From: Candidatus Omnitrophota bacterium
GTDB taxonomy: Bacteria > Omnitrophota > Gorgyraeia > JAHIPI01
Length of the DNA: 38,118 bases
Reading direction: 5' to 3'
NCBI GenBank assembly: GCA_016931215.1
Contig: JAFGFD010000135.1
Span: 1-38,118, forward strand
Of the stretch, positions 15,388 to 35,963 are shown piece after piece (within the stretch, counting starts at the first letter, position 1; each line of letters opens with the position of its first letter). The translations under genes and the position numbers were made by a program. The notes under the pieces were generated by a model. It did not search any database. It was not told the origin of the DNA and saw nothing but the letters and a program-made list of their open reading frames with translations.

Positions 15388-15399
15388 AATTCTGTATTA

Positions 15400-15468
15400 G
15401 GTTTACGGTGTATGGTTCATGGTTTTCGGTGCATGGGAATTTTTTCCTGACACCGTAAACCATTAACC
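15400..15468. repeat. Inverted heptamer array, GGTNNAY family
   Basis: ggtttac ggtgtat ggttcat ggttttc ggtgcat gg, then caccgtaaaccattaacc; 15400-15410 is perfectly complementary to 15451-15461. Confidence 0.9.
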
Positions 15469-15475
15469 AGTCTTC

Positions 15476-16579
15476 TTACCATCCCTTCTTTACGGTATCG
15501 ATTACCCTCATTACGTCATCGTCTGTAAGGCCCGCGTGCAGCGGTATGGAGACATATTTAGGCTCCAATTCGTTCATAACGGGTAGATTCAAACGTTTAC
15601 CTCCGAATATGGGATAGACGTCGCAGCGGACATGGACCATGTGGGTGTCTATCCCGTTGGATCTCATCATCTTTATGAAATCCTCCCGACGATTCACCAG
15701 GATCGTAAAGAGCCAGTTGGCGCTCTGCCTGTCCGATTTCTTCTCCAATAGCGTCAATCCGTCCACTCCGCTCAATCCCTTACGGTACATATCGGCTATT
15801 TCCCTGCGCCTTAGATTAACTTTTTCCAAATCGTCGAGCTGAACAGAAAGTATTGTGGCTGTGACATCGTTCATATGATATTTGAAACCGGGCTCTTCCA
15901 CCTTAAACTTCCAGTATATGTCGCCTTTGAAGTTTCTGTCTATTCCGTACCATCTCAGCAACTTTCCTCTTTTATAATCTACTCCATCCTTGCACACTAG
16001 CATGCCGCCGTCTATAGTCGTAATCTGTTTTATCGCCTGGAAGGAGAAGCAGGTAAAATTACTAACGGCCCCGATATAGGCACCTTTGTACCGTGCTCCC
16101 AAAGCGTGAGCTGCGTCTTCGATAACCGGGATATCTCTTGACTTGGCTACAGCATGTATCTCATCCAGGTCGCATGGATTGCCTGCCCAGTGCACAACGA
16201 GTATCGCCTTTGTCTTATCTGTTATCTTCTCTTTGACGCTTTCCGGGTCGATATTCATAGAAGACTTTTGTATATCGGCAAATACCGCCTTTGCCTTCTG
16301 ATGCAGAATATGGATATTTGTGGCGGAGCACGTCATCGGTGTGGCAACGACTTCGTCTCCCTCATTTACATCCGATAGTAAAAGAGCGAGATGCAACGCG
16401 GAGGTACAGGAATTTAAGGTGAGCGCCCCACTTAAGCCGAAAAGCTTTTCGAACTTCCTCTCCACCTTATCCACCTCGGGCCCCTGGCCGATCCAATCGG
16501 TCTTGAGTATCTCGACCACTGCCCCGGCTACCTTCTCCGACATATAGGGTTTGAACATCTTTATGGATTTGTCACTCAT
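15476..16579 (-). CDS. DegT/DnrJ/EryC1/StrS sugar aminotransferase
   Basis: NSCTSALHLAL, IEDAAHA, SFQAIKQITTIDGG, GFKYHM. Confidence 0.92.
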   Translation of the reverse strand: MSDKSIKMFKPYMSEKVAGAVVEILKTDWIGQGPEVDKVERKFEKLFGLSGALTLNSCTSALHLALLLSDVNEGDEVVATPMTCSATNIHILHQKAKAVFADIQKSSMNIDPESVKEKITDKTKAILVVHWAGNPCDLDEIHAVAKSRDIPVIEDAAHALGARYKGAYIGAVSNFTCFSFQAIKQITTIDGGMLVCKDGVDYKRGKLLRWYGIDRNFKGDIYWKFKVEEPGFKYHMNDVTATILSVQLDDLEKVNLRRREIADMYRKGLSGVDGLTLLEKKSDRQSANWLFTILVNRREDFIKMMRSNGIDTHMVHVRCDVYPIFGGKRLNLPVMNELEPKYVSIPLHAGLTDDDVMRVIDTVKKGW

Positions 16580-16601
16580 TCGTTAATATTCTCCTCGATT
16601 G

Positions 16602-17417
16602 TTACAAGATTGCATGTTCCTTTTTTCTATTTAATCTATCTAAAAAATCCGCATTGAAATCCATGATCTTTCTGCCGTTACGATCAAAGATGCCGAATTT
16701 CGCAAGGCCGCATCTTTGCAAGATAAACCTCAAGCATGTCCAGAGTATGCCGAATCCGTACACGATAGACCTTGCGAACGATATGGAAGAAGCCTCTTTG
16801 TTATAGTTGGTGGGGGAGGTCACCTCGCCTATGCTATATCCGAAATATATCGACTGCGCGAGCATCTCGTTGTCAAAGACGAAATCATCGGAATTCTCGA
16901 TTATAGGCAAGTTCAAAAGCACTTCTCTTTTAAAGGCCCTGTATCCGGTGTGATATTCTGAAATCTTCTGCCCCATAACGACATTTTCAAAAAGCGTCAA
17001 CGCACGATTAGCCACGTATTTATATAAAGGCATTCCGCCTTTGAGTGCCATGCCGCCCAATATCCTCGAACCCAGGGCTATATCAAAGACGCCGGATACA
17101 AGAAGCCCCGCCATAGCGGGGATGAGTCTGGCGGGATATTGATAATCCGGATGTAGCATGACGACTATGTCTGCCCCTCGTTCAATCGCAAGCTTGTAAC
17201 ATGTCTTTTGATTGGCACCGTAACCCATATTCTCGTCATGTAAATATGTCGCGATGCCCAACTCTTTTGCCTTATGAACGGTCTTATCATGGCTCTTATC
17301 GTCCACCAGGAGTATCTCGTCTACGATATCTTTTGGGATCTCTATATATGTCTTTTCCAGGGTACTTTCCGCATTATAAGCGGGCATCACTACAACAATC
17401 TTTTTACCATCGAGCAT
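16602..17417 (-). CDS. GT2, polyprenyl-phosphate (DPM-like) glycosyltransferase
   Basis: VVMPAYN, VDDKSHD, GYGANQKT, GSR, SEYHTGYRAF. Confidence 0.85.
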   Translation of the reverse strand: MLDGKKIVVVMPAYNAESTLEKTYIEIPKDIVDEILLVDDKSHDKTVHKAKELGIATYLHDENMGYGANQKTCYKLAIERGADIVVMLHPDYQYPARLIPAMAGLLVSGVFDIALGSRILGGMALKGGMPLYKYVANRALTLFENVVMGQKISEYHTGYRAFKREVLLNLPIIENSDDFVFDNEMLAQSIYFGYSIGEVTSPTNYNKEASSISFARSIVYGFGILWTCLRFILQRCGLAKFGIFDRNGRKIMDFNADFLDRLNRKKEHAIL

Positions 17418-17485
17418 TAACTACATTCTCCCTTGATGCGGGTGAATATCTAACTTTTTATATCTCTCTATGATGAATGTTAGAT

Positions 17486-17530
17486 ATTATACACTTTTCT
17501 ATTGTAGTTGTATAGCAAAAAATGTATAAT
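17486..17530. promoter_or_regulatory. Back-to-back divergent sigma70-type promoters
   Basis: Plus strand: TTGTAG (17502-17507), 17 nt, TATAAT (17525-17530). Minus strand: TATAAT at 17486-17491 with a weak TATACA -35. The spacer is AT-rich. Confidence 0.6.
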
Positions 17531-17560
17531 ATCGAAAACCATATACATATAAACAGGTAA

Positions 17561-18718
17561 ATGGGGGTCTACATGTCAAAATTAACACATAAAAATGTAC
17601 TAATAATAATTATAGTGTTATCCCTGGCCGTAAAATTGGGGCTTTTTTGCTATGCTTTTTTCAACGTCCCTTCCCTAAAATTCATGCCCGATACCCCTAC
17701 CTATCTGGAACCCGGAATAAATCTTATTGAAAAGGGGGCCTTCGGTACATACGATGAGAACGGCGTTCTCCACTATGAGATCAATAGAACCCCTGGATAT
17801 CCTTTATTTCTAGCCATATTAAACAAAACATTCAATCTCTCACTTGACGCTATAGTCGTTATCCAAATATTTCTCATCACCCTGGCGGGCTATATGGTAT
17901 ACAAAGCGGCGCAAGAGGTGGACAAGAACATTGCCCCTCTGGCGGCCTTCATATTTTTGTTCGACCAGCCTACCACGCTCGCAAGTTTAATGCTTTTGTC
18001 GGAAGCTTTATACACTCTATTCATCGCTATTTTTATATACCTTTTCCTGCGCTACCTCAACGAAAGGAGGTTGTCCCTATTGTTATCTTTGACGGTTACT
18101 ATTGTGGCTGCTACGTATATAAGGCCCGTAAGCTATTATATAGGGATATTCCTGGCTGGAGGCATAGTATACGCGTTATACCGCCCGTCTCTCACGCGGG
18201 CCTTAGTTCACGGCCTCACGTTACTTTTGGTCTTCTACTCTTTGTTGGGGGTATGGCATTACAGAAATTTCTCCGCAACCGGAAATGCCGATTTTACCGT
18301 TATAGACAACAGAGACCTGAATCATATGGGGTTTGTACATAAGTACGGAAGGGACGACGGACTTGAGGGGACAGGAGCCGGCCCTGTCCGATATTACGCA
18401 GACCTAGTCATAGAATCTATAGTCCAGTTCTTTACGTTACCTGGTACTTTCAAGTACTTCAAATCCGAAACCCTTAGAATGGCCTCGAAGATATTCGGTT
18501 ATCCCTGGGTCTTCTTTTGGATTGTCGGTCTATTCTTCGCAAGATACGGCGAGGTCAAAGGCCAGGCCCTCTTGTTAATTTTGCTCTATTTTATGCTGGC
18601 CTCTATCTTTGTGGTGGGTCTTTGCGTAGGAAGCAGATTCCGCGTACCTGTGATGCCGTTGGTCTCTATTTTATCGGCGGCCGGATGGATGAAAATATAC
18701 TCCTTTTTTAAAAAATAG
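17561..18718 (+). CDS. Multi-pass membrane GT-C superfamily glycosyltransferase (ArnT/PMT-like)
   Basis: Many hydrophobic helices, PDTPTY after TM1, RTPGYPLFL, LSEALY, C-terminal RFRVP. It is the only plus-strand gene; the start may be 17573. Confidence 0.75.
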   Translation: MGVYMSKLTHKNVLIIIIVLSLAVKLGLFCYAFFNVPSLKFMPDTPTYLEPGINLIEKGAFGTYDENGVLHYEINRTPGYPLFLAILNKTFNLSLDAIVVIQIFLITLAGYMVYKAAQEVDKNIAPLAAFIFLFDQPTTLASLMLLSEALYTLFIAIFIYLFLRYLNERRLSLLLSLTVTIVAATYIRPVSYYIGIFLAGGIVYALYRPSLTRALVHGLTLLLVFYSLLGVWHYRNFSATGNADFTVIDNRDLNHMGFVHKYGRDDGLEGTGAGPVRYYADLVIESIVQFFTLPGTFKYFKSETLRMASKIFGYPWVFFWIVGLFFARYGEVKGQALLLILLYFMLASIFVVGLCVGSRFRVPVMPLVSILSAAGWMKIYSFFKK

Positions 18719-18722
18719 ATTT

Positions 18723-20855
18723 TTATCTCCTTGCGCCGGGTTCGGGGCCTCGGTACGTCGTCCTGAAGAAGAACGGTATGTCGGGGAATGCCTTGAGGCG
18801 GAATATTACCCAGAACGTATAATCGGTCTCGTCCTCTATCCTGCAAGTCAGCTCGGAAGACCAACAGTGGAGATCTTTTACTATGGTGTACTCCTGCTCC
18901 TGAAACTGCTTTTCCTGTAACTCGTACCTATTATATATTCTGAAACCCCATCTCTTCTTCCAGTCCTTATTGGGTATGTCATAATTGAAGTAGCTGGTGA
19001 CTTGAGAGTTCTCGTCTTGTTCGTATCTATATCCCGCTCCGAACGTCATATCTTTATACTTTGTCACGTGTAGATCCGCGTTGAATGTGTCAAACTGACG
19101 AGCTTCTCTGTCAAGGTGCGCCTCGGCGTCGAAGTACAACCAGTCATAAGGGCGCGTCTCGAGATCATATTTTATGCCAAGGAGCTTATTGTCCTGGCCG
19201 AAGTCATCGAGAAATACGTATTCGCTCGACACTATAAACGAAAGGAGGTCAACGGTCTTTTCAGAGCCGTCATCGGCATGCCTCTTCGTCTGCAATTTAT
19301 GCTCGATTGCCAATTCCACGCTGTTTTTTTGCCTGATAGCGTCTATCTCGTCGAACTGAAGGAGATCTTCCGGAGAGACCTTTGGTTCCCTTATGTATTC
19401 ATAGCGGGCGCTCGGAATGATGAGGTGGCGGATCTTGTTGATATCCAGGTTCAAAAAATTTGTCTCAACGTCGTAAATCTTGTAACTCCGGGCGTATATA
19501 TCCACTCCCGTATTATACAGATCGCGCACGATATTGTCGTTACCGGCTTCGTCCTCCGTGTAAAAAGTCTGTCTCGTTCCTATAAAAGGATTGAGGTTCA
19601 GGAACCCGAACAGCGAAAATGGGTACGATAGCTCATTGTAGGTATCGGCCCTCGTAGCGTCATAACTGTCTCCGGCCCTTGCCCCATCGACGTCGTTGGC
19701 AAAACTCTTATTGAGAACGGCTATACTCGAAGTGTTCGTGTAGTAAAGATTCAAATGGTTCAATAACTTCAATTTTCTAATATTCAGGCGCGCCTCCGGC
19801 AGCCTCTCGGTTACGGTGAAGAAATCGTTTACCTTCGGGCGATATAACATGGAAAGGGTGTAATTCTCCTTTGCGCCGATAAGGGTAAGATAAGTCTGCG
19901 GCTCGTGGTCCAGTTCATATTCCTCTTTATAGAAAAAATCCTTTATGAAATCCCGGTCGCTCAATTTATGAAATTCGCCGGCCATGAATGTGTTTTCGTC
20001 GACCGGCCACTTATGGCGTACCTGAACCCTGTATCTTTTATCGTCGATGCCGCTGCCGGGCTCTTTGTCGTGCAGATAATAGAATCTTGCGTATCCTTTG
20101 CCGAATTTCTCCATTCCGTATTTGTAATCCAGCCCCTCCGCAAACCCTCTCTTGGACCTCCAGTCCACGTGGACGTGGCCTTTGGAATCGGGATGAAAGT
20201 AGTACCGCCAGCTCGACAGAAGATAAGCCCCCCACTCATCGTTATGGCCGGGTACCAGATTCACCTGAGGTAGATTGTCTTTCAACGGATGATTATAATA
20301 AGGGATGTACATAATCGGCATGTCTCCGACATAGAACAAGACGTTCCAGGCGGTTACCCGGTCGCCCAGATATATCTTGATGGTCCTTGCCTCGATCCTG
20401 TAATGCGGCTTCTCATAGTCGCAGGTTGTAATATAACTCTTATTGAGGTCGAATTCTTGGTCAGCGACTTTCTCGATGGATTCGGCGTTTCCGTACCAGG
20501 GCGGCATCTTCATCTCGCCGTTTATCAACTCTCCCGTCTTATTTTCGAAATTATAAACGACGTTCTCCGCGCTGAAGACGTTATCCTGTTGATACAGCGT
20601 CACGTTACCTTCCGCTAAGCCCTCTTTCGCATCCAGGTTGACAGTGATCTTATCACAAGTAATCCTGATATCCTTGTAATTTATAGAGACGTTACCCGTT
20701 CCCGTAACTATCTTATTCGCATGATCGTACTGGACTTTGTCGCCGTTCACCACAATAGGAAGTGTCTTGGTATCAATGTCCTCGCCCTCTGCCGATGCAG
20801 CGGCCACCAGCAGTAGTGGAAAAATGATATATGATAACAGTATTTTTTTGAACAT
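18723..20855 (-). CDS. lptD: LPS assembly protein LptD
   Basis: Signal peptide, OstA-like N-domain, TTCDYEKPHY, aromatic-rich beta-barrel C-terminus. Confidence 0.82.
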   Translation of the reverse strand: MFKKILLSYIIFPLLLVAAASAEGEDIDTKTLPIVVNGDKVQYDHANKIVTGTGNVSINYKDIRITCDKITVNLDAKEGLAEGNVTLYQQDNVFSAENVVYNFENKTGELINGEMKMPPWYGNAESIEKVADQEFDLNKSYITTCDYEKPHYRIEARTIKIYLGDRVTAWNVLFYVGDMPIMYIPYYNHPLKDNLPQVNLVPGHNDEWGAYLLSSWRYYFHPDSKGHVHVDWRSKRGFAEGLDYKYGMEKFGKGYARFYYLHDKEPGSGIDDKRYRVQVRHKWPVDENTFMAGEFHKLSDRDFIKDFFYKEEYELDHEPQTYLTLIGAKENYTLSMLYRPKVNDFFTVTERLPEARLNIRKLKLLNHLNLYYTNTSSIAVLNKSFANDVDGARAGDSYDATRADTYNELSYPFSLFGFLNLNPFIGTRQTFYTEDEAGNDNIVRDLYNTGVDIYARSYKIYDVETNFLNLDINKIRHLIIPSARYEYIREPKVSPEDLLQFDEIDAIRQKNSVELAIEHKLQTKRHADDGSEKTVDLLSFIVSSEYVFLDDFGQDNKLLGIKYDLETRPYDWLYFDAEAHLDREARQFDTFNADLHVTKYKDMTFGAGYRYEQDENSQVTSYFNYDIPNKDWKKRWGFRIYNRYELQEKQFQEQEYTIVKDLHCWSSELTCRIEDETDYTFWVIFRLKAFPDIPFFFRTTYRGPEPGARR

Positions 20856-20875
20856 ATTCCCCCTTGATTAGGATT

Positions 20876-21529
20876 TTATTTTACCTCGACTTTCATCTTG
20901 TTCCAATCATCTATGAATCTCTGAATACCGATATCGGTAAGCGGGTGTTTTACGAGCTTCATAAGGGCCTCGTAAGGAACCGTAGCGATGTCGGCTCCTA
21001 TCTTCGCCGCTTCAAGAACATGCAGTGGGTGTCTTATACTCGCTACGATTATTTCAGTTTTAAAACCATAATTTTTATAGATGGCCTTGATATCCCTTAC
21101 GATATCCATGCCTATGTGGCTGATATCGTCAAGCCGCCCTATAAACGGACTTATATAAGTAGCTCCCGATTTAGCCGCAAGTAAAGCCTGATTAGCCGAA
21201 AAACACAGCGTAACATTTGTCCTCACTCCTTCCCGCGAAAGAACCTTTACGGTTCTAAGGCCATCGGGAATAAGAGGAATCTTTATGACAACATTCTTAT
21301 CTATCCGGGAAAGGGCCCTGGCTTCATCGAGCATCTCTTCATAATCAAGCGCCATCACCTCGGCGCTGACAGGACCATCCACGATCGAGCAGATCTCTTT
21401 TACCAGAGCTGTAAAATCTTTGCCCTCCCGGGCGACCAGAGTAGGATTTGTCGTTACGCCGTCTATAATACCTAGATTATTGGCTTGCCTTATATGCTCT
21501 ATGTTCGCCGTATCTATGAATATCTTCAT
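20876..21529 (-). CDS. fsa: Transaldolase / fructose-6-phosphate aldolase (TalC/MipB family)
   Basis: [35 protein letters not shown]. Confidence 0.93.
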
Positions 21530-21546
21530 CGGTTCCTCTTTAGTAT

Positions 21547-21637
21547 GGTGTACGGTTTAAGGTGTATGTTTCACGGCTACCGGTTGCTGGTTTATATTTT
21601 TTCTTTTCCGCTAACCAAAAACCGTGAACCATTAACC
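21547..21637. repeat. Inverted heptamer array, GGTNNAY family
   Basis: Seven GG-type units at 21547-21595, a T-rich loop, then gctaacc aaaaacc gtgaacc attaacc at 21610-21637, touching the ROK stop codon. Confidence 0.9.
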
Positions 21638-22611
21638 TAAGAAATTTTTTTTAATAAATTTATTTTGACCAGCTCTGCGGCGCCTATGACGCCCGCATCG
21701 TTACCTAGTTTTGCCCTTACAACCTTGGCCGTCCTACCCTGAATCGCCATGGCCCTTTTTTTCAAGGTCTCTCTAAGCGGCCTGAAGACCAAATCACCCG
21801 CGCCGGCAATCCCTCCTCCTATTATTATCAATTCGGGATTCAACAGGTTTACGACTCCGGTAAGTGCCACTCCCAGGTGTTCACCCATCTCCCGCCACTT
21901 ATTGAGAGCATATCGATCACCGCCTAGTGCGGCCTTTGTAAGCATCTCAGGCGTTATATCCGCTATTCTATTGTTAGATATCGCCAGGACGGATGTCCTG
22001 ACGCCTCTTCTAATATCTTTTTTCACTTCTTTTAAAAAATACTCCCTGCCCACGTACGCCTCTATGCACCCAATGCCTCCGCAGTTGCACCTGGGCCCCT
22101 TTTCGTTTATGGGCACATGGCCGATCTCGCCCGCTACCAGGTCTTGGCCTCTACGCATCTTGCCGTCGATTATAACGGCTCCTCCCACGCCTGTGCCCAA
22201 AGTAAGGCATATAACGTTATCGTAACCTCTTCCCGCTCCGTACGTGACTTCGCCTCTCGCCATTACCTTTACGTCGTTGTCGACAAAAGTAGGTAAGCCT
22301 GTCTTTTTTTCCAAAAGCTTCTTAAGAGGGACGTTTTTCCAGGCCGGAATATTTATAAAATAAAAAACCAGGCCTCTCTTAAAATCCAGTAGGCCTGGTA
22401 CACCGATTCCCAATCCCAAAAAATCGCGTTTTTTCAATCTTAATCTCCGAGAGAGGGAATCCAACAAATCCGATACGGCATCTATCAGGGCGTTCTTCCT
22501 ATGCATCTGAGTGCTGAAATTATCTTTGAGGAGGATATGCCCTTTTAAATCGAGTATGGCGACCTTCGTTTGTGTGGCCCCTACGTCCACACCTGCCAAA
22601 AATTTATTCAT
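21637..22611 (-). CDS. ROK family sugar kinase (glucokinase)
   Basis: GVDVGAT, LGTGVGG, EIGH...CNCG...GCIE zinc motif, NDAGVIGAA. Confidence 0.9.
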   Translation of the reverse strand: MNKFLAGVDVGATQTKVAILDLKGHILLKDNFSTQMHRKNALIDAVSDLLDSLSRRLRLKKRDFLGLGIGVPGLLDFKRGLVFYFINIPAWKNVPLKKLLEKKTGLPTFVDNDVKVMARGEVTYGAGRGYDNVICLTLGTGVGGAVIIDGKMRRGQDLVAGEIGHVPINEKGPRCNCGGIGCIEAYVGREYFLKEVKKDIRRGVRTSVLAISNNRIADITPEMLTKAALGGDRYALNKWREMGEHLGVALTGVVNLLNPELIIIGGGIAGAGDLVFRPLRETLKKRAMAIQGRTAKVVRAKLGNDAGVIGAAELVKINLLKKIS

Positions 22612-22618
22612 AATGGCA

Positions 22619-23722: not shown

Positions 23723-23753
23723 CCCGTCTCCACAATCTACTTTATTATAGAAA

Positions 23754-24596
23754 TCACGAAAAATAATGGATAAGCTTGTTGATGCAATCTCTTAAGTCTT
23801 TCCTAGAGATTACCATATCTATGAGTCCGTGTTCAAGCATAAACTCAGAAAGTTGAAACCCCTCGGGTAACTTCTGCCGTATGGTCTGTTCTATCACCCT
23901 CGGGCCGGTAAAACCTATGAGTGCCTTTGGCTCGGCTATAATGACATCTCCGAGAGAAGCAAAGCTCGCCATGATCCCGGCCATTGTGGGATGCGTAAGC
24001 AGCGATATGAATAAGTGACCGGCTTTATTGTGCCTGCTTATCGCGGCGCTGGTCTTGGCCATCTGCATCAGGGAAAACATCCCCTCGTACATCCTGGCCC
24101 CGCCGCCCGATCCGGAACAGATGACAATAGGCAGTTTTGACTCGGTAGCCTTTTCTATGGCGCGGGTGATCTTTTCTCCTACGACGGAACCCATGCTCCC
24201 CATGATAAACCGTGAATCGGTCACGGCAAATATCAATCTGTTCCCCTCTATCTTACCCTCGCCCGCAATGACGGCTTCTTTAAGACCCGTTGTCTTCTTG
24301 TCGCTCTCCAGTTTGTCCTTATATTTTTTTGGCCCCTTGAACCCCAGAGGGTCCTTGGATGTCATCTCCTTGTCAAACTCATGGAAACTATCTTTATCTA
24401 ATGTATATTTTATTCTTTCATGGGCGTTTAAGGTAAAGTGGTAGTTACACTTCGGGCATACCTTAAGGTTTTCCTCGAGTTTCTTGTTGTAAATAATCTC
24501 TCCGCATTCATCGCACTTTGTCCAGAGCCCCTTCGGAATGTCCTTCTTCTTCGAAACCTTTACTATCGTATATCTTGGTTTTCCAAACAGCGGCAT
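23754..24596 (-). CDS. accD: Acetyl-CoA carboxylase carboxyltransferase beta subunit
   Basis: LWTKCDEC...CPKC zinc ribbon, [30 protein letters not shown]. Confidence 0.96.
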
Positions 24597-24615
24597 ATCG
24601 ACTCCGTTATGTCTT

Positions 24616-24769
24616 TAGTCGATAGTCAATGGACTATGGTCTATAGACTATGGAAAAATTTTAAATCCTTATACTCCAGAATTTTTATTGTCGGGACAAC
24701 TACTAATCCTATATGCTAAACGCTGTCTCTCTTGTTCTCCTGTGCCCTTGTGACTTGTGTTCTTGTGCG
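24616..24769. repeat. Composite of short-period arrays (TRGWCNA heptamer, CGCTA heptamer remnant, CYTGTGNN octamer)
   Basis: tagtcga tagtcaa tggacta tggtcta tagacta tgg (24616-24653); ctatatg ctaaacg ct (24709-24724); cttgttct cctgtgcc cttgtga cttgtgtt cttgtgcg (24731-24769). Confidence 0.85.
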
Positions 24770-24784
24770 CTTATAACTGAAAAT

Positions 24785-24813
24785 ATTATACCTATTTATT
24801 CTTCTTATGTAAA
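24785..24813 (-). promoter_or_regulatory. Putative sigma70 promoter for accD and downstream genes
   Basis: TTTACA (24813-24808), 17 nt, TATAAT (24790-24785). Confidence 0.65.
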
Positions 24814-25436: not shown

Positions 25437-25468
25437 ATGCATCCTTTCGCCAATATAGCTAACTTCGC

Positions 25469-25571
25469 TAAACGGGACATCTTCTTCGAAAATGTCCCGT
25501 TTAAATTCACCCACCGATGCTGCGGGACACTTTCGTTGAAAATGTCCCGTTTAAATTCACCCACCGATGCT
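25469..25571. repeat. Two tandem 50-bp units, each a REP-like hairpin
   Basis: 34 bp are identical at 25488-25521 and 25538-25571; taaacgggacat/atgtcccgttta form a perfect 12-bp stem. Confidence 0.9.
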
Positions 25572-26863: not shown

Positions 26864-26882
26864 CTATAGATAATTCCCGATA

Positions 26883-27257: not shown

Positions 27258-27529
27258 TTTTTAACCGTATTCTGCTGGCAGGCTGCGCAGCCGGGGTCCG
27301 AATCTTTTGCTTTCGGGCACTGAGAAGATCCCTTTTCCTTCTCTTTGCCCCTTTTATAATCCGTTTCGTAGAAGCCCGAACCTTTAAAAATTATACCCGC
27401 GCCGTAACCTATCAATCTTCTAATCTCGGATCTGCATTTCGGGCACTCCTTTAACGGTTCGTCTTTCATGCTCTGAAATGCCTCGAATCTATGTCCGCAT
27501 TTTATGCATTCGTATTCATAAGTCGGCAT
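27254..27529 (-). CDS. FmdB family zinc ribbon protein
   Basis: MPTYEYECIKCGH...CPKC...FKGSGFYETDY. Confidence 0.92.
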   Translation of the reverse strand: MPTYEYECIKCGHRFEAFQSMKDEPLKECPKCRSEIRRLIGYGAGIIFKGSGFYETDYKRGKEKEKGSSQCPKAKDSDPGCAACQQNTVKK

Positions 27530-27545
27530 ATTATTTTCTTTCTGT

Positions 27546-27573
27546 TTCGTCGTTCGTCGTGCGTATGTCGTAT
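27546..27573. repeat. Short degenerate heptamer array (TCGTCGT type)
   Basis: ttcgtcg ttcgtcg tgcgtat gtcgtat; a short complementary tacgca lies at 27591-27596. Confidence 0.6.
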
Positions 27574-27609
27574 TGAGCGAAAGCCTTCACTACGCATCAT
27601 CATGTTTTA

Positions 27610-28779
27610 TCATCTATTTTTATTTACAAATCTCTTTACCGACTCCAAAAATGACTTTCTCATAGGGCTCGATTCATCGCCGATAGACTTTGCAAATACT
27701 TTTAAGGCCTCCTTCTGCTCGGCGTTAAGGTTTTCCGGCACTTCTACGAAGATCCTTACGTGCTCGTCGCCGGTCCCGTAAAAATTCATCCTTGGGAAAC
27801 CTTTCCCCCTTAGCCTGAATATCTTGCCACTCTGAGTGCCGGACGGTATACTCATCTTGACTTTTCCGTCCAGAGTGGGTACATCTATCTCGGCCCCAAA
27901 TACGGCCTGGGGAAAAGTTATCGGGACGCTAACCAGCACGTCATCGCCGTGCCTTTCGAAAAGTTCATGCGGTCTGATATAAATATCGGCGTACAGATCG
28001 CCCCGGTTCCCGCCGGATGTGCCTGCTTCCCCCTCGCCGCTTATCCTAAGCCTAGTGCCCTCATTTACGCCGGCCGGGATTTTTATCTTTATCTTCTTTG
28101 CAACCTTTACCCTGCCGCTGCCGTTACAATCTTTGCATGGGCTCGTTATTATAGTGCCCTCGCCTCCGCAGGCGCTGCATGTCCTCGATACGCTGAAGAA
28201 GCCGCTCGACATCACGACCTGGCCCCTTCCGCCGCATTGGGAGCATTGCTTCTTTTTAGATCCGGGTTTTGCGCCACTTCCCTTGCAGGTAGGGCATATC
28301 TCGTTACGCTTAATCGTTACGGTCTTTTCGACCCCGGTCGCTGCTTCAAGGAATTCTATCTCAAGATTGATCTTGATGCTTGGGCCTCTTCTTGGGCCGC
28401 GGCGCCTTGAAGACGACCCGAAAGCCGTCTCGAATATGCTCCCCCCGAAACCGTTGAATATATCTCCGAGATTAAAATCGCTGAAGATATCCTGGATATC
28501 ATCGAAGTGGGTGAAGTCAGACCAACTGAAGCCTCCGCCGCTAAAAGCGCCCTGTATGCCAGCGTGGCCGAATTGGTCGTAGGTACTTCTCTTATTGGCG
28601 TCGCTTAAGACTTCGTAGGCCTCGGAGACTTCTTTAAACTTCTCCTCGGCCTCTTTTTCTCCTCCCGGATTCTTGTCGGGATGATACTTAAAGGCGAGTC
28701 TCCTATATGCCTTCTTTATATCCTCGGGGCTTGCATCACGCGCAATACCCAGGACTTCATAGTAATCACGTTTTTCCAT
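27610..28779 (-). CDS. dnaJ: Chaperone DnaJ
   Basis: J domain with HPD, G/F region, four CxxCxGxG repeats. Confidence 0.98.
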
Positions 28780-28785
28780 GATATT

Positions 28786-28870
28786 TAGCGTTTAGCGTAT
28801 AGCGTTTAGCGTATAGGTTTTTTGTTATAAGAATTACCTCCATGCGCTATCCGTTAGACGCTATACCCTA
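28786..28870. repeat. Inverted heptamer array, TAGCGTW family
   Basis: (tagcgtt tagcgta)x2 tag at 28786-28816; tgcgcta tccgtta gacgcta tacccta at 28843-28870, including the dnaK stop codon. Confidence 0.92.
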
Positions 28871-30844
28871 TTTCTTCCCCTCGTCCTCGACTTTGTAATC
28901 CGCGTCGACGATGTCTTCGTCATTATTCGTCTTTCTGCCATCCCGGCTCTGTTTTTCATCCTGCCCGGTTCCGGTGCCCTTCGGACCCGATTGAGAAGAC
29001 TGAGACTGTTTCTTCGAAGCCTCTTTATACATCTCCTCAGCCAGTTTATGGCTCGCTTTGGTCAATTCTTCCTGTACCTTCTTGATCTCACTTAAGTCCT
29101 CGCTCGTAAGTTTATCTTTCGCTTTGGAAAGGGCCTCTTCTACCCTCTTCTTTTCGTCTTGAGACACCTTGGAACCGTGTTCCTCCAGACTCTTCTGGAC
29201 CGAATAGACAAGCGTATCGAGCTGATTTCTCGCGTCTATCAACTCGCGCCTCTTTTTGTCCTCCTGCTCGTGGGCCTTTGCCTCGTTCATCATCTTATCT
29301 ATCTCTTCCTTGGATAGCCCGCTGGATGATTCTATTCGTATCTTCTGCTCCTTGCCGGTCGCCTTATCCTTCGCGCTCACATGAACTATGCCGTTTGCGT
29401 CTATATCGAAGGTGACCTCGACTTGCGGAATGCCCCTCGGAGCAGGAGGTATGCCTAACAGATCGAACCTGCCTAAAGTGCGGTTATGTTGGGCTATCTC
29501 CCTTTCGCCCTGGAGTACATGAATGGAGACGGCTGTCTGATTATCGGCAGCGGTAGAGAATATCTGGCTCTTCCTGGTAGGTATAGTGGTATTCCTTTCG
29601 ATAAGTCTTGTCATAACGCCTCCCAGCGTCTCGATGCCAAGGGAAAGTGGTGTAACGTCCAGAAGCAAAATGTCTTTAAGATCGGCGTGGCCTGAGAGGA
29701 TTCCACCCTGGATAGCCGCGCCTACCGCAACCACTTCATCAGGATTTACGCCTTTGTGGGGTTCTTTGCCAAAGAGCTCTTTTACCACGCTCTGTACCTT
29801 GGGCATCCTCGTCTGGCCCCCTACAAGGATAACTTCATCTATGTCGCTGGACGATAGCCCGGCGTCTTCCAATGCCTTAATGCAAGGTCCCTTGGTCCTT
29901 TCGACCAGATCGTCCAACAGCTGCTCCAGTTTTGATCTCGTTAAACTGAGTGTAAGATGTTTAGGGCCGCTCGAATCCGCCGTGATAAAAGGCAGGTTTA
30001 TCTCTGTCTGCATGTTAGTCGACAGCTCGCACTTGGCCTTTTCAGCCGCTTCTTTCAGCCTCTGCAGGGCCATCCTATCGTTCCTCAACTCGATGCCGTT
30101 CTCTTTCTTGAATTCATTCGCTATCCAATCCACTACCTTCTGGTCGAAATTGTCTCCGCCTAAGTGTGTATCGCCATTGGTCGATTTCACCTCAAGCGAA
30201 AGCTGGCCGTCTATCTCGCTCACTTCGAGGATCGATATGTCGAATGTACCGCCTCCCAAATCATACACCGCGATCTTCTCGTTCTTCTTCTTGTCCATAC
30301 CGTACGCGAGGCTTGCCGCTGTCGGCTCATTGATAATCCTCAAGACCTCCAATCCCGCTATCTGTCCGGCATCCTTGGTCGCCTGCCTTTGAGAGTCGTT
30401 GAAATACGCCGGCACGGTGATAACCGCCTTTGTCACCTTCTCGCCGAGATAATCCTCCGCGGTCTGTTTCATCTTCTGAAGTATCATGGCGGAGATCTCC
30501 GGCGGCGTGTAGGTCTTGCCTCTCAATTCGACCACGGCGTTCCCGCTGGAATCCTCGGATACCTTGTACGGCACCAGCTTCTCTTCTTCCTTGACCTCGT
30601 CGTGGCGCCTGCCCATGAAACGCTTTATTGAAAATACGGTGTTGTCGGGGTTGACTACGGCCTGGCGCTTTGCCGGTTGCCCGACCAATCGCTCGCCGCC
30701 TTTGGTGAAACCCACGACGGAGGGCGTGGTGCGCGAACCTTCGGCATTGGTCAACACCGTAGGCTCCTTTCCCTCCATCACCGCAACGCAAGAGTTTGTA
30801 GTCCCAAGGTCTATGCCTATTACCTTACCTTTTGTCTTTGTCAT
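28868..30844 (-). CDS. dnaK: Chaperone DnaK
   Basis: [33 protein letters not shown]. Confidence 0.99.
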
Positions 30845-30867
30845 GGCTAATCCCTCCTTAGATTATC

Positions 30868-31431
30868 CTATTTTTTCTTTCCTACCTTCACTATGGCCGG
30901 CCTAAGCAGCCGCCCATTAAGCATGTATCCGGCCTGAACCTCTTCCACTATCTTATGGTCTTTGTCTTCATCCGCCTCAACATGCTCAACGGCGTCGTGC
31001 AAAGTCGGATCGAATTCTTTTCCGAGTGCCTCTATCCGTTCGATGCCTCTCGCCTCCAGAATACGATGAAACTCTTTCTGTATCATCTTTATGCCCTCTA
31101 TCACGTTCTCCACTTTCTGCGTGCCGTTTATGTGCTCCATGGCTCTATCGAAGTTGTCAATAACGTATAACAGCTCGCTTAAGAGATCCTCATTGGCGAA
31201 CTTTACATATTCCTCTTTCTCCTTATTGAATCTCTTGCGGATATTATCGATCTCGGCTTGAGCTCTCAAATATTTATCCTTATAATCCTCTGCGTCTTTC
31301 GTGAAAGCTTTAAGCTTATCTAGCTCGGCCTTGTCGATCAATACCTTCTCTTCTATGCTTTTGCCCTCTTCCTTAGAGCTATCGGCTGTCTTCGCTTTAT
31401 CATTATGTTCCGCTTCTCTCTTATTACTCAC
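30868..31431 (-). CDS. grpE: Nucleotide exchange factor GrpE
   Basis: RAQAEIDNIRKR, DNFDRA, FDPTLHDA, GYMLNGRLLRPA; synteny with dnaK. Confidence 0.97.
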   Translation of the reverse strand: MSNKREAEHNDKAKTADSSKEEGKSIEEKVLIDKAELDKLKAFTKDAEDYKDKYLRAQAEIDNIRKRFNKEKEEYVKFANEDLLSELLYVIDNFDRAMEHINGTQKVENVIEGIKMIQKEFHRILEARGIERIEALGKEFDPTLHDAVEHVEADEDKDHKIVEEVQAGYMLNGRLLRPAIVKVGKKK

Positions 31432-31432
31432 T

Positions 31433-32176
31433 TTATATCTCCATATCGTCCAATACCTCTTCTATCGCCTTCGAAACAAAATCGACAAGAGGTATCAAGG
31501 CCGAATAATTCATCCGAACGGGTCCCAATACGCCAAGGCTGCCTTTCCTGGCCTTCTTAATATTATAATTCGCGGTTATCAACGACAGATCCCGAAGAGT
31601 CTCGTTTTTTCCTTCCTCTCCTATGTGTATCTTTACTCCTTCCGTCTGCAGGTCTTCTTCGATAAGGTTGAAGAGTTCCTCCTTTTCGTCGAACAACCTC
31701 AGAAGGTTCTTCATCCTCTCGACATCCTTGAACTCGGGTATGTCGGCCATATTACTGGTGCCTTCCATGTAAAATTTCAGGTTCGATATACAGGCGATAC
31801 CCGCGTAACGCGTCAATTCGGAAAGAAGATGAGATATATAACCCAGCATCTCCTCGAGCGTCTCTATTCTCTTCTTATAATACTCCATCTCGATCATCTG
31901 TTTCCTTTTGTCGGAGATGACATCCAGCTCCATCAGATTATTCACATAGTACCTATAACCGTTGCGTGTCGGTATCCTCCCCGCGGAAGTATGGGGCTTG
32001 GCTATATAGCCCATGTCCTCAAGTTCCCCCATTACGTTTCGTATAGTCGCGCTCGATAATCCAAGGACATCCGATACATGCAGAGACCCTATGGGAGAAG
32101 CTGACTTTATGTGGGAAAGTACGACTATCTTTAAAACGTCCTTTTGTCTATCGTTCAATCTATGCTCTCTTGCCAT
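31433..32176 (-). CDS. hrcA: Heat-inducible transcription repressor HrcA (short form)
   Basis: SSATIRNVMGELE...PHTSAGRIPT winged HTH and GVLGPVRMNY; CIRCE upstream. Confidence 0.93.
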   Translation of the reverse strand: MAREHRLNDRQKDVLKIVVLSHIKSASPIGSLHVSDVLGLSSATIRNVMGELEDMGYIAKPHTSAGRIPTRNGYRYYVNNLMELDVISDKRKQMIEMEYYKKRIETLEEMLGYISHLLSELTRYAGIACISNLKFYMEGTSNMADIPEFKDVERMKNLLRLFDEKEELFNLIEEDLQTEGVKIHIGEEGKNETLRDLSLITANYNIKKARKGSLGVLGPVRMNYSALIPLVDFVSKAIEEVLDDMEI

Positions 32177-32253
32177 AATCCCTCATTAGCCGTCCGGCAA
32201 AATATAAGCCAAATAAGACAAATGTGCCCCCTTGAGCCATATTGATAGGGGGC

Positions 32254-32280
32254 TTAGCACTCTATATAGAAGAGTGCTAA
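32254..32280. promoter_or_regulatory. CIRCE operator
   Basis: Perfect TTAGCACTC-N9-GAGTGCTAA. Confidence 0.98.
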
Positions 32281-32286
32281 TGTGTT

Positions 32287-32314
32287 ATTTTATCATGCTT
32301 TCATCTTTTGTCAA
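32287..32314 (-). promoter_or_regulatory. Sigma70 promoter of the hrcA operon
   Basis: TTGACA (32314-32309), 16 nt, TAAAAT (32292-32287) with an extended TG, immediately upstream of CIRCE. Confidence 0.82.
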
Positions 32315-32355
32315 GAAAAAAATCGTGAAAATTTTGCGCCTCGGTATCGCCGGCG

Positions 32356-33591
32356 TCATTTGTAAAAAATAGCCTGGTACCTCTTGGGTATAGTTGCCTC
32401 TATATAGATTCCTTTATCGGTATACTCGGTCTTTTTAACCTTGCCATACTCGTGTATTATATTGAATTTCTTCATCTCGTCATGCGGGATCGTTATCTTT
32501 ATCTCCGTCATAAGGTTCGACAATTCGCGGACCAGTCTGTCTATCAGGTCTTCCAGGCCTTGTCTTTTAAGGGCGGATATTATGACCGGTGAATCGAAAT
32601 GATGTCTGATGCCGGATAAGACTATATCATCGTCTATCTTATCCTTTTTATTCAACACGTTTATCAACGGCTTATCGTCTATTTCAAGATCCCTGAGCAC
32701 GGCGCGGACGGAATTGCTGCATTCGACGATCTTCGGGTTACTGGCATCTATGACATGAAGCAGCATATCGGCGCCGCGGGCCTCTTCGAGTGTGGCCTTG
32801 AATGACTCGACCAAATGGTGCGGTAGATTGTGTATGAAGCCGACTGTATCGGAGAAGACGATGCGTTGATTGTCAGGCAGCGTATACTTTCGCACCGTAG
32901 GGTCCAACGTGCTGAAGAGTTTATCCATGACATACGCGTGTGAGCCGGTGAGGGCATTGAAGAGTGTCGATTTACCTGCATTCGTATAGCCCACCAACGC
33001 GACCGTACAGGTCGTGAACCGTTCTCTCTGCTTTCTGCGCGCGTGCCTCTGCCTCGTAGCGCTATCGAGCTCCTCCTTGAGATGCGCGATCTTGTCGCGG
33101 ATCCTTCTTCTGTCAAGCTCGAGTTTCTTTTCGCCGGGCCCCCTTGTGCCGATTCCGCCTCCTAACCGCGAAAGGATAATGCCCTTGCCGGTGAGGCGCG
33201 GCAATGCATATATCAGTTGCGCCAATTCCACCTGGATCGTACCCTCCTTAGAATGCGCCCTTTGTGCGAATATATCCAAGATCAACTGTGTCCTGTCTAT
33301 CGTCTTTATCTCCAGCACCTCCTCGAGGTTTCTCTGCTGGGTCGGGCTTAAATCATGATTGAAGATAACGACATCGCAGCCTTTTTCCCGAGCGACAGAA
33401 CCAATCTGGTCCACTTTACCTTTCCCTATTAGGAACTTCGGCGAAAATTCCGCAAGTCTTGCCGTAACCTCCGCAAGTATACTGACTCTGCTTGAGGTCG
33501 CCAGTTCCTTCAACTCAGCAGCCAGATCCTCAACGCTCCATTCTCTGTCTTCCGAGACATGTTTCAAAGTTACTAAGACGGCTCTTTCCAT
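32356..33591 (-). CDS. hflX: GTPase HflX
   Basis: [36 protein letters not shown]. Confidence 0.97.
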
Positions 33592-34526
33592 ATCTTTTTA
33601 TTGCCCTTTTTTAGAACAGAATCTGCTATATTATTTATAAAGGTACTGTACTTGTCATTGTCGCGGAGATTGAACCACGTCGCGGAGGCATCTTTGCGAA
33701 ACCAAGTCATCTGCCTCTTAGCGTAACGACGCGTGTTCCTCTTGATTATCTCTTTTGTCTGAGGCAGAGTAAATTTTCCGTCCAAATAATCGACGATCTC
33801 TTTGTAACCGAGGACTGCGCCGGCCGTCCGGCTCAGTCTTATCCCCCTCAATCTCGATACCTCTTCCGCTACCCCCTGTTTGAACATCATCTCGACGCGG
33901 CTATCGATCCTTCCGTATAGCGCCTGTCGCGGTCTGGATAAGATGAATAACGCGATCTCATATCTGTCGCGGATACCTTCTGTCTTCAGGTGCTCATCGG
34001 AGATGCGACTGCCCGTAAGCTTATATATCTCCAGGGCCCTTATTATTCTTCTTGCATCATTCATGTGTATCTTGGAAGCGTACACAGGGTCGATCTTGAG
34101 CAATCGGCCATAAAGATAATCACCTCCTTTCTTGGCGGCGACTGCTTTAAGATGCATCCTATACCCCTCATCCTTGGGCGGCGATGGAAACAATCCGTTT
34201 ATAAACGAGCGGGCATACAGGCCGGTGCCGCCCACGACAATGGGCACCTTCCCTCTTCCCAAGATTTGAACGGTGATCCGATCGGCCCTCCCGACGAAAT
34301 CGGCAGCGCTCCATTCTTCGGACGGATCGAGAAAACCTATCAGATGATGTCTTGCCGACTTGAGCAACCGTTTCTGAGGCTGCTGGCTTATGATGCGCAT
34401 CCCTTTATAAACCTGCATGGAATCGCAGGAGATTATCTCTCCTTTGATCCTATCGGCGAGCTTTACCGCAAATTCGCTTTTGCCGATCCCCGTGGGGCCA
34501 AGAACAAAAACTATATTTGGCTTCAT
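33573..34526 (-). CDS. miaA: tRNA dimethylallyltransferase
   Basis: [30 protein letters not shown]. Confidence 0.97.
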
Positions 34527-34538
34527 GCGCTATATCCT

Positions 34539-35696
34539 TTATTGCGGAAATTTCGGGATGCGTATCTTGCCTCTTGCCATAGATATCTCAAAGATTATAA
34601 TAATTACCAACATAAAAAATGCAAATACATAAGGAGTCCTGATGCCTAATGTGCCTGCCGTTACGCCTCCCACTAGGGGACCCAAAAACGCCCCCGCTCC
34701 TATAAAGCCCTCATGAAGGCCGCTCCTCTTACCCTTGTCGATGAAACCGTAGAGTGAGTAGAAGATACTGGAAAAATACGTCATGCCGCCGGATATTCCC
34801 AACAGGAAAAACGCTATCATAAGATAAACGACTCCGGAATTTCTCATTAGTATGGCAAGGGCTAAGAGGGCCAAGGCCTGACATGCGACCAACGGGGTAA
34901 GCCGATAATGCCATCTTGCCGTCTTTCCCAAAATAAAAAATACAAAAGTCTGCGCCAGCATCATTATAAAAATCAAAATTCCGATGAAGCCGCTTGAAAA
35001 ACCCAACTCGATGCCCAGCTTAGGAAATATGTTTCTCACCGTGCCTACTATGTACCAGCTTGCAAAATTGGCGAACCAGGCAATGTAGAGGTATCTCTCG
35101 GACTCCTTGGGCCTGTCGTTCTCGGTCTGGATGAAGACCTTGCGGGCGGGCTCATCCTCCGTCTCAGAGACGATCGGCTGCCTGAGAAGAATAAAAAATA
35201 CAATACATAAAAGAGTTACGCCGAAAAAGAAAGGCGCCTTATAATCTATCGAGAATAGGAAACCAGATATCAAAAACCCAAAAGTGAGTCCGGCGCACCA
35301 GAATATATTGAAGTATTTTAGCGAACGAAGGAGCGCCTTTTTATCCAGACCCTGAGAGAGCCATGACTGTATTGTCGGCCAAAAAAGAGCCATCGAGAAC
35401 GCAGCGGGGATATATAACGCAAATACACATTTGATATCATGCGACAAGGGAAGGATTAAGTATGAGACTACAAAAAGTACGCAGCCCGACAGGAGGACCG
35501 TCCTGCGGTTCATCCTATCGCTCAACCTTCCGAACGCGACTACCCCGGATGAATAGATCAATGCACCAAGGGCGCCAAAGAGTCCAAGGGTGAGAGAAGA
35601 AGCTTCGAATCTATATATAAGAAGGAGGGGCAACGAGAGTAGGACAACCCCTAAAGCAAAATCGGCTAAAAACGCGGCGATGTAAAAATTGATCAT
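34539..35696 (-). CDS. MFS transporter
   Basis: About 12 TM helices; motif A GRLSDRMNRR. Confidence 0.88.
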   Translation of the reverse strand: MINFYIAAFLADFALGVVLLSLPLLLIYRFEASSLTLGLFGALGALIYSSGVVAFGRLSDRMNRRTVLLSGCVLFVVSYLILPLSHDIKCVFALYIPAAFSMALFWPTIQSWLSQGLDKKALLRSLKYFNIFWCAGLTFGFLISGFLFSIDYKAPFFFGVTLLCIVFFILLRQPIVSETEDEPARKVFIQTENDRPKESERYLYIAWFANFASWYIVGTVRNIFPKLGIELGFSSGFIGILIFIMMLAQTFVFFILGKTARWHYRLTPLVACQALALLALAILMRNSGVVYLMIAFFLLGISGGMTYFSSIFYSLYGFIDKGKRSGLHEGFIGAGAFLGPLVGGVTAGTLGIRTPYVFAFFMLVIIIIFEISMARGKIRIPKFPQ

Positions 35697-35698
35697 TT

Positions 35699-35962
35699 AC
35701 TAGACTATAGTTTTATATAGGTTTATGGCTAACGGTGTATGGTTCATGGAATTTTGCTTCTCCGTTAACCGATAACCGCAAACCGTGAACCGGTCCTTTA
35801 AAACCGTAAACCATTAACCGCGAACCTAAGTGCTATTTTTATTTGTATCCTGGTGACCTAGTGACTTTGCGCTTCTATAACAGAGTTTTTTCCGTAAACC
35901 GTATTATAGTCTATCGTCTATTGTCTATCGTCTATTGTCTATCGTCTATTGTCTATAGACCG
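35699..35962. repeat. Nested multi-family heptamer/octamer array complex
   Basis: tagactata at 35701; GG arm 35720-35749; in-phase AACC arm 35762-35826; cctggtga cctagtga at 35849-35864; (ctatcgt ctattgt)x3 at 35911-35952. Confidence 0.93.
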
Positions 35963-35963
35963 A

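Follow-up and report, generated by a model that had tools for sequence, protein, structure and literature searches.

The stretch of DNA analyzed here, hereafter the window, comprises 38,118 nucleotides (nt) of a Candidatus Omnitrophota bacterium (assembly GCA_016931215.1, contig JAFGFD010000135.1, positions 1-38,118, forward strand) and carries arrays of tandem repeats with a period of 7 or 8 nt in six of its spacers. The window is the entire contig C23 of its host genome, G000, a 1.6-Mb assembly in 162 contigs that is 81% complete with 45% G+C; relatives in the same class are designated likewise (G001, G003, G005, G032, G067, etc.). Almost all genes of the window lie on the minus strand, and the six spacers all separate co-directional genes: DegT/GT2, ROK/fsa-type aldolase, B12-binding/accD-type, dnaJ/Zn-ribbon, dnaK/dnaJ and TPR-SPOR/MFS. 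The six sites likely belong, as gene-less copies, to a single lineage-specific population of palindromic modules, the full form of which carries a gene of the four-helix-bundle protein family IVP (PF05635/TIGR02436; 23S_rRNA_IVP, S23p).

A sequence-only reading of the window had named these six spacers, and period-7 or period-8 arrays were borne out in all of them. Tandem Repeats Finder (TRF) reported a period of 7 at 24629-24654, 27546-27564, 28784-28820, 35762-35792 and 35905-35956. Three tandem units of GGTNNAY, with at most one mismatch, match the window eight times (0.00 expected), and two units of TAGCGTW match three times (0.05 expected). Five of the sites contain inverted arms in several registers that are 7 or 14 nt apart (Table 1), and no inverted pair was found when one was looked for in 27525-27615. 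At every paired site the G-rich arm is 5' on the plus strand, and an arm begins 0 nt from the stop codons of ROK and dnaK, 2 nt from that of TPR-SPOR and 6-7 nt from that of DegT, in agreement with the polarity and the stop-codon anchoring (at or within 7 nt) that had been proposed for these elements. The shared words were also exactly as described: a 16-mer is identical at 15407 and 35734, and a 17-mer found at 15452 recurs identically at 35803 and, with one mismatch, at 21621. Across G000, this 17-mer has six exact copies and 25 copies at one mismatch or fewer. The octamer family was confirmed in the window and elsewhere in G000, where the family of the solo arm at 24728..24778 also brackets an IVP gene (C132:3084-3511).

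The further claim that the transcript folds into a long hairpin held for four elements, for which transcript-strand folding is clearly low in energy (z of -2.47 or below), and failed for three others (Table 1), which are solo or decayed arms and not hairpins. In total, four hairpins in the window are complete, several arms are solo or decayed, and one spacer is a mosaic of at least four arrays. This mosaic is the 267-nt spacer (35697-35963) between the TPR-SPOR gene, the product of which has TPR and SPOR domains, and the MFS gene, and the hairpin at 35718..35828 is part of it. No Rfam family matched the window.

Arrays were detected throughout G000 as segments with at least 15 of 21 matches at a lag of 7 and a detection floor of 28 nt, with local shuffles serving as the control. 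There were 163 lag-7 arrays compared with 15 in the shuffles and 7-41 at other lags, and TRF returned period 7 in 163 of 689 rows, period 6 in 27 and period 8 in 78. A bump in the autocorrelation at lags of 7, 14 and 21 is seen in intergenic DNA only, and 130 of the 163 arrays are less than half coding according to the crude longest-open-reading-frame (ORF) gene calls used for this genome. The main families are GGTNNAY, GTCTATA/GACTATG, TAGCGNN, ATAGCTC, CTGAAAA and the period-8 GAGCACAR, and the median array measures 36 nt, or approximately five units, a weak figure given that the 28-nt floor truncates the lengths. An inverted partner, defined as a reverse complement with at least 16 of 21 matches within 200 nt, was found for 60 of the 163 arrays compared with five in the reversed-sequence control. 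Of the 45 inverted pairs, the G-rich arm comes first in 43 and the C-rich arm in one, and the remaining pair is a tie. Since a palindrome is the same on either strand, this polarity reflects the handedness of the module itself, not any preference for a strand. A derivation of the polarity from stop codons in three frames was considered and rejected; G-rich arms close 2.01 frames (1.75 when shuffled), and C-rich arms are also raised (1.86 versus 1.34).

The arrays group into 106 clusters, 92 of which have two called neighbors. Of these, 84 lie between co-directional genes, seven between convergent genes and only one between divergent genes, where divergent spacers constitute 13% of spacer length (binomial p = 7e-5) and 6% of junctions (p = 0.03). 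The 5' arm is no more than 10 nt from the upstream stop codon in 13 of 33 hairpins, while the 3' arm typically stops 13-27 nt ahead of the next start. Arm polarity and stop anchoring are also seen genome-wide, and the idea of an element that occupies gene junctions is upheld in that the arrays sit in transcribed junctions and are scarce between divergent genes. Arrays showed no enrichment at contig ends in G000 (11 of 163, p = 0.62). Short-read contigs from the probable source run end at arrays at window positions 28659-28788 and 35929-35938; such ends indicate that the repeats break assemblies and that the number of arrays is probably underestimated.

Whole modules recur in G000. Gene-less modules on contigs C123 and C18 are 97% identical over 102 nt, those on C18 and C71 are 98% identical over 124 nt, and a 142-nt mosaic occurs in two places on C140 with 95% identity. 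The flanks of the near-identical gene-less copies are unrelated.

The link to IVP genes is provided by PF05635, which has four matches in G000: three are full genes and the fourth is a remnant of 29 residues. Each of them is enclosed by arrays (Table 1), and the six window sites are without a PF05635 gene. The IVP protein encoded on C11 matches TIGR02436 and has two solved homologs, 2gsc and 2rld, each deposited with five chains. Complementary arrays 200-3000 nt apart form 19 pairs in G000 compared with three in the control. Where the arms are less than 500 nt apart, the cargo between them consists of IVP genes, plus one tRNA-containing spacer, and nothing else; the remaining long-range pairs are neighboring hairpins around housekeeping genes. 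The tRNA-containing spacer (C4:779-1366) has GTCTATR arrays on either side of a tRNA gene (55.5 bits) and of a further, partial copy of that gene's 3' end, along with solo TAGCG-type and octamer arms.

PF05635 is present in 58 of 81 genomes of the class. Thirty IVP loci were sampled from the class, of which 28 were evaluable (L109 and L121 were dropped on account of a short or masked flank), and upstream and downstream flanks were scored as inverted at 14 or more of 18 matches. The best period was 7 in 21 upstream and 20 downstream flanks. Inverted flanks were found at 20 of the 28 loci and at none of 28 controls, and the upstream arm is G-rich at 20 loci. The repeat unit is specific to each locus (GGGTAAG, GCGTTAA, CAGCTNT, TAGGGTN and others), and the IVP gene runs in the same direction as the upstream ORF at 26 of 26 loci and as the downstream ORF at 25 of 27. 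Period 7 is present on both sides of all ten IVP loci on plasmids of Nostoc, Calothrix, Anabaena, Geminocystis, Stanieria and Riemerella, and nine of them have inverted matches of at least 15 of 18, with the G-rich arm upstream. One of the plasmid loci is cas6-IVP-cas4 of Anabaena sp. 90, and its arms account for IVP genes having been reported within cas operons in an earlier paper (PMC3936711). Every IVP locus examined sits between protein-coding ORFs and not in a 23S or 16S rRNA helix. Cargo-bearing copies, with a four-helix-bundle gene between the arms as the sequence-only reading had anticipated, therefore exist in G000, in its relatives and on plasmids.

An alignment of 33 IVP proteins has invariant Q, N, E, G, F, S and E residues and a nearly invariant RR pair, a pattern that would be compatible with a binding or a catalytic site and is proof of neither. 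One armless IVP match (L128, in G083) is found 2.4 kb away from an RVT_1 gene and probably represents an accessory gene of a retroelement.

Alignment of orthologous junctions recovered filled, empty and naive alleles at dnaK-dnaJ. The spacer in G000 is 88 nt long and contains a gene-less TAGCGTW hairpin, while in G032 an IVP gene lies between TAGCGNN arms of the same family, and the dnaK stop codon TAG abuts the first unit in both genomes. G067, which belongs to the same genus as G032, is without the IVP gene and has remnants of both arms plus a new GGATTAAG hairpin. Naive junctions occur in G000's own family, with spacers of 8 nt (G001), 5 nt (G005) and 3 nt (G003). In 19 other relatives, the spacer is 12 nt or less in nine, 32-46 nt in three, other sequence in three and masked in one, and the last three carry other heptamer families (CATGACA, ACAGANN and GACAGAA). 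The same absence from orthologous junctions of sister genera is seen along the window. Syntenic contigs of G001 (34.5 kb) and G005 (17.7 kb), 52 kb in all, contain no arrays compared with seven in the window, and their spacers at four of the six junctions measure 5-40 nt. The dnaJ/Zn-ribbon spacer is approximately 11 nt in both relatives and the TPR-SPOR/MFS spacer approximately 12 nt in G005; G001 has no spacer at the ROK-fsa junction, and an insert of approximately 150 nt, to which the array at 24611..24657 belongs, is missing from both G001 and G005. In G001 (C8:31121-31219), the match to the fsa-type aldolase is confined to its first 33 residues, where in G000 the entire gene stands behind the ROK-fsa hairpin.

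Arrays and IVP genes also co-occur across genomes. Lag-7 arrays, scored here at 16 or more of 21 matches, numbered per 100 kb 4.0, 24.5, 5.5, 0.5 and 6.4 in large samples from five IVP-bearing genomes and 0, 50, 15, 0 and 25 in 20-kb samples from five more, two of which include IVP genes; 15 genomes without PF05635 gave 0-2.6 arrays per 100 kb (median 0). The median densities of 5.96 and 0.0 differ (Mann-Whitney p = 0.0016), and at least two arrays per 100 kb were found in 7 of 10 IVP-bearing and 1 of 15 IVP-free genomes. Tight IVP clades share their arms (TAGGGTN; CAGCTNT; and reversed-polarity ATAGACC at two different junctions), and the IVPs of loci L126 and L133, which are 66% identical, have the same unusual arms at different junctions. 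For every filled copy in G000 there are more than 10 without the gene.

Table 1. Array elements of the window and IVP genes of G000. Fold values refer to the transcript strand, with the folded segment in brackets where it differs from the element.
Feature	Position	Arms or arrays	Inverted arms	Context	Fold
Complete gene-less hairpin, GGTNNAY family	window 15397..15470	G-rich 15400-15434, loop, C-rich 15450-15469	15400-15469	between DegT stop (15476) and GT2 start (15387)	-26.7 kcal/mol, z -5.08
Complete gene-less hairpin, GGTNNAY family	window 21543..21638	21545-21585 and 21613-21638	21545-21638	between ROK and fsa-type aldolase	z -2.47
Self-complementary GTCTATA/GACTATG array	window 24611..24657		24611-24654	just upstream of accD-type start (24596)	z -1.77, weak (24597-24670)
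Solo period-8 arm	window 24728..24778	CTTGTGNN on plus strand, CACAAGNN on transcript	no partner arm		
Solo or decayed TCGTCGT-type array	window 27545..27574		no inverted partner	between dnaJ and Zn-ribbon gene	z 0.04 (27530-27609)
Complete gene-less hairpin, TAGCGTW	window 28784..28870	28786-28816 and 28842-28870	28786-28870	fills dnaK-dnaJ spacer	z -2.88
Gene-less hairpin, GGTNNAY	window 35718..35828	additional internal C-rich array, 35757-35794	35718-35828		z -2.80
Solo period-8 arm	window 35845..35882	terminal motif same as arm at 24766-24778		within mosaic	
Array of 7.4 heptamers, TATCGTC/TATTGTC	window 35901..35962	14-nt super-period	partner very short	begins 2 nt past TPR-SPOR stop	z -1.42 (35890-35963)
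IVP gene	G000 C11:4668-5033	ATAGCTC arms			
IVP gene	G000 C132:1363-1719	GACTATA/GTCTATA arms			
IVP gene	G000 C132:3094-3471	octamer arms			
IVP remnant, 29 residues	G000 C162:7770-7856	arrays on both sides			

In the explanation we favor, a module begins with a 5' arm of approximately 4-6 tandem heptamers (octamers in one family), which a short loop rich in A and T separates from its complementary 3' arm. In its full form, the same arms surround a promoter-less IVP gene of approximately 120 codons with an A-rich leader, always oriented in the direction of the host operon, which is the classical architecture of a 23S rRNA intervening sequence (IVS) at a site between protein-coding genes. Modules would be copied as units into transcribed spacers by machinery encoded outside of the modules, and would later change by slippage (unit number and sliding register), by nested insertion (the mosaics) and by decay (the solo arms). 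They may be near-neutral for the host, since the space they occupy runs from a stop codon to the following ribosome-binding site. Given that no strand asymmetry was detected, the palindrome may matter as DNA, in the form of a hairpin or cruciform copying substrate, at least as much as it does as RNA.

Several observations weigh against this proposal. No mobility enzyme (transposase, integrase, reverse transcriptase or nuclease) lies within any module, and there is no clear target-site duplication, the one imperfect candidate being at the B12-accD junction. The near-identical copies end inside arrays, so that array-guided recombination or gene conversion is as possible as transposition. The direction of change at orthologous junctions, a gain in G000 versus a loss in its relatives, is argued from parsimony only. 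Only a single IVP remnant was found in G000, so most gene-less copies would not be recent in-place decays of filled ones. As for the co-occurrence, five of the ten IVP-positive samples are of only 20 kb and come from contigs known to hold IVP matches, and G013, G019 and G067 are IVP-positive yet array-poor in the sampled stretches. The gene calls in G000, as mentioned, are crude. Finally, TAGCGTA and CAGCTGT arms are also found on distant IVP branches, and the most abundant gene-less families, GGTNNAY in G000 and GTTCATR in G050, have no arm-matched IVP in their own genomes. These last two points leave a strict one-protein-one-family reader, in which each repeat family is read by its cognate protein, unsupported among the genomes compared, which are incomplete.

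A broader hypothesis is that IVP pentamers are sequence-specific readers of tandem heptamers, with one unit per subunit, that propagate themselves together with their arms, in a partnership akin to the REPIN-RAYT system discussed below but resting on a non-HUH helical-bundle protein, and that rRNA IVSs, the short tandemly repeated repetitive (STRR) sequences, the GGGAATC and TAACTGA repeats and the Omnitrophota hairpins belong to one ancient, cross-phylum class of elements. This is conceivable, although we would not expect it to be correct.

Among the alternatives, one holds that the heptamers are microsatellite-like repeats that arose by slippage in place and are kept as mRNA hairpins or G-quadruplexes that stabilize or separate cistrons, with IVP genes landing or surviving in pre-existing loops. 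Sliding registers, degenerate units and variable unit numbers are what slippage would leave, different lineages carry different families at dnaK-dnaJ (CATGACA, ACAGANN, TAGCGNN), the most abundant families are without a matching IVP copy, and the Xanthomonas repeats are mostly transcribed and near stop codons (PMC4692102). Counting against slippage, a fixed 17-mer of 2.4 units recurs 25 times at one mismatch or fewer, and modules of 100-140 nt are found again in their entirety, non-repetitive loops and mosaics included, at 95-98% identity. Relatives whose orthologous spacers measure 3-12 nt have no seed from which an array could slip, arrays are near-absent in 14 of the 15 IVP-free genomes of the class, and folding gives no advantage to the sense strand. 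A G-quadruplex is impossible as the common property, as G3 runs are absent from the G000 units GGTTTAC, GTCTATA, TAGCGTT, ATAGCTC and CTGAAAA; they are present in the arms on cyanobacterial plasmids. We therefore regard in-place slippage as an unlikely origin of the modules.

A second alternative is that the arrays are working binding sites, such that IVP pentamers or another protein read the heptamers and regulate translation or decay of the neighboring transcripts as a network and not as selfish elements. The five chains in each of the structural relatives 2gsc and 2rld, next to a median array of approximately five units (weak, owing to the detection floor), could be taken in this way, as could the invariant polar residues Q, N, E, S and E with the near-invariant RR pair in the 33 IVPs and the co-occurrence of arrays and IVP genes across genomes. 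A binding role has also been proposed for TAACTGA repeats upstream of start codons (PMC4679880). It is difficult to reconcile regulation with an orientation that is random relative to transcription, with neighbors that are unrelated housekeeping genes, with sister-genus orthologs that do without arrays and with families that lack a matching IVP, and we consider a regulatory network doubtful. Lastly, a function as intrinsic terminators or attenuators, suggested by stem-loops directly 3' of stop codons, is highly improbable, as no T run follows the 3' arm, most hairpins lie within rows of co-directional genes with the next ribosome-binding site 13-27 nt downstream, and a terminator scan gave 22 sites versus 20.0 expected, with no coding-strand site coinciding with an array hairpin and a single 5-pair site, on the opposite strand, within the ROK-fsa loop.

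Returning to the proposal of copied palindromic modules, the sequence-only reading had suggested that the element is tolerated through RNA folding or processing, and this part found no support. Fold energies of sense and antisense strands did not differ (22 versus 15 of 37, Wilcoxon p = 0.41), and the A/T orientation of the loop relative to transcription was not significant (19 versus 14). Selection for wobble pairing on the sense RNA was rejected on these grounds. The RNase III family PF14622 was not found in G000, G001, G004, G050, G083 or G040, nor was PF00636 in G000, in searches that match 8 of 14 control genomes (completeness is 81% for G000 and 93-96% for the others). The class may lack a canonical RNase III. 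With the families not found in six genomes, the excision step of the classical IVS is probably not transferable to the present modules.

Candidates for the mobilizing machinery were also sought. No transposase, integrase, reverse transcriptase or nuclease was found inside the modules, and a transposase-bearing parent for the arms, as expected of a MITE (a miniature transposable element with inverted repeats), was not found either; IVP was the only cargo found. Retro-mobility by a resident reverse transcriptase was rejected because the array-rich G000, G050 and G040 have no RVT_1, while the array-free G001 and G059 do have it. Y1_Tnp occurs in six of six array-rich and two of five array-free genomes. 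The sole Y1_Tnp gene of G000 (C26:2950-3650), which resembles IS200 or the transposases associated with repetitive extragenic palindromes (REPs), known as RAYTs, is flanked by an inverted, non-heptamer REP-like repeat, and no period-7 array was found near it. This gene and its repeat are a separate repeat system in G000, and a Y1 transposase was rejected as the mobilizer, being insufficient and without heptamer flanks.

We file the system as IVS-type cassettes outside of rRNA with arms composed of STRR-type heptamer arrays, STRRs being abundant intergenic tandem heptamers of cyanobacteria. REPs, together with the derived BIMEs and REPINs, are short palindromic intergenic modules that form mosaics and are excluded from promoter spacers, and the associated RAYT gene is present once, sits between inverted copies of the repeat and encodes a Y1 HUH transposase. 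The present modules resemble the REPIN-RAYT system in each of these respects, including a gene between inverted repeat copies, but the flanked gene encodes a 120-residue helical bundle and not a Y1 HUH transposase.

The 23S rRNA IVSs of Leptospira, Coxiella and others share the architecture of the filled modules: a small ORF of the same family lies between terminal inverted repeats that pair into a long stem, and there are versions without the ORF. In Coxiella, the terminal stem of the 23S IVS measures 28 bp, and two to three tandem GACAGAT heptamers precede the S23p ORF; RNase III cuts at the first heptamer unit, and the number of units varies by strain (PMC4990558). Unlike rRNA IVSs, the present modules lie in protein-coding spacers and beside a tRNA gene instead of in 23S helices, their arms consist entirely of tandem heptamers, which belong to many sequence families, and the RNase III that excises the rRNA IVS belongs to a family not found in six genomes of the present class.

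Among free-standing repeats, GGGAATC of Xanthomonas and GGGGAYT of Nostoc have a period of 7, are mostly intergenic between co-oriented ORFs with few between divergent ones, lie very near the upstream stop codon, prefer approximately four units and include 70-75 convergent pairs able to form stem-loops (PMC4692102). The present arrays share the period, the stop-codon placement, the convergent pairs and the scarcity between divergent genes, but G000 families are without G3 runs and the present arms bracket IVP genes. The accessible text of PMC4692102 treats the repeats as G-quadruplex-forming simple repeats, draws no link to a mobile element and mentions neither XCC0516 nor IVP. TAACTGA repeats are abundant intergenic tandem heptamers with a patchy distribution across phyla (Beggiatoaceae, Cyanobacteria and Bacteroidetes) and occur as direct repeats toward the downstream start codon, with one inverted case, as possible translational operators (PMC4679880). 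Unlike TAACTGA, the present arrays are mainly inverted pairs that are anchored at the upstream stop and have no orientation bias; in common with TAACTGA and STRR repeats, G000 also has a heptamer family of the CTGAAAA type. The description of the window sites as cargo-less copies of an undescribed element is retained in its first part, which the checks proposed in the sequence-only reading supported, and not in its second, given that heptamer pairs and IVS heptamers are in print. Literature linking IVP or S23p genes to inverted heptamer arrays outside of rRNA was not found in a search whose coverage excluded subscription journals and supplements.

To our knowledge, decades of reports on tandem heptamer repeats (STRR, GGGAATC, TAACTGA) have given neither an origin nor a function for them, and we know of no role assigned to the four-helix-bundle protein of rRNA IVSs since the 1990s. 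Inverted heptamer arms surround an IVP gene in three phyla, and gene-less hairpins are abundant only where IVP is present. This co-occurrence turns two puzzles into one testable system, for which culturable hosts (Xanthomonas, Nostoc and Bacteroides) and homologs with solved structures are available. It would also explain insert polymorphism at conserved operon junctions such as dnaK-dnaJ and the presence of IVP genes in unrelated operons, including the cas operons reported in PMC3936711. For metagenome-assembled genomes, the arrays are a source of contig breaks and mis-called gene starts.

Some further observations were made along the way in the window and in the genomes compared. A 50-nt direct repeat in two copies (91% match) spans the junction between the B12-binding start and the DUF1015 end in the window (25473-25571). 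In G011, G013, G016, G017, G024, G026 and G028, dnaK gives two adjacent match pieces (approximately residues 6-81 and 104-658), pointing to an insertion or a split around residues 81-106. Arrays are occasionally read in frame in G000. A 36-nt GGTNNAY array (C11:3285-3320) lies in frame within a family-2 glycosyltransferase ORF, and two ATAGCTC arrays (C11:2430-2528) lie in frame within the ORF preceding it. On C24 (10167-11972), heptamer arrays in three consecutive pseudopilin genes are read in frame as long prepilin leaders. The first of these ORFs has a strong ribosome-binding site and an ATG ahead of the hairpin, no alternative start was found after the hairpin, and the N-methylation motif appears only at residues 37-58, followed by the T2SSG domain at 61-159. 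Inserts in these leaders may be tolerated through leader cleavage.

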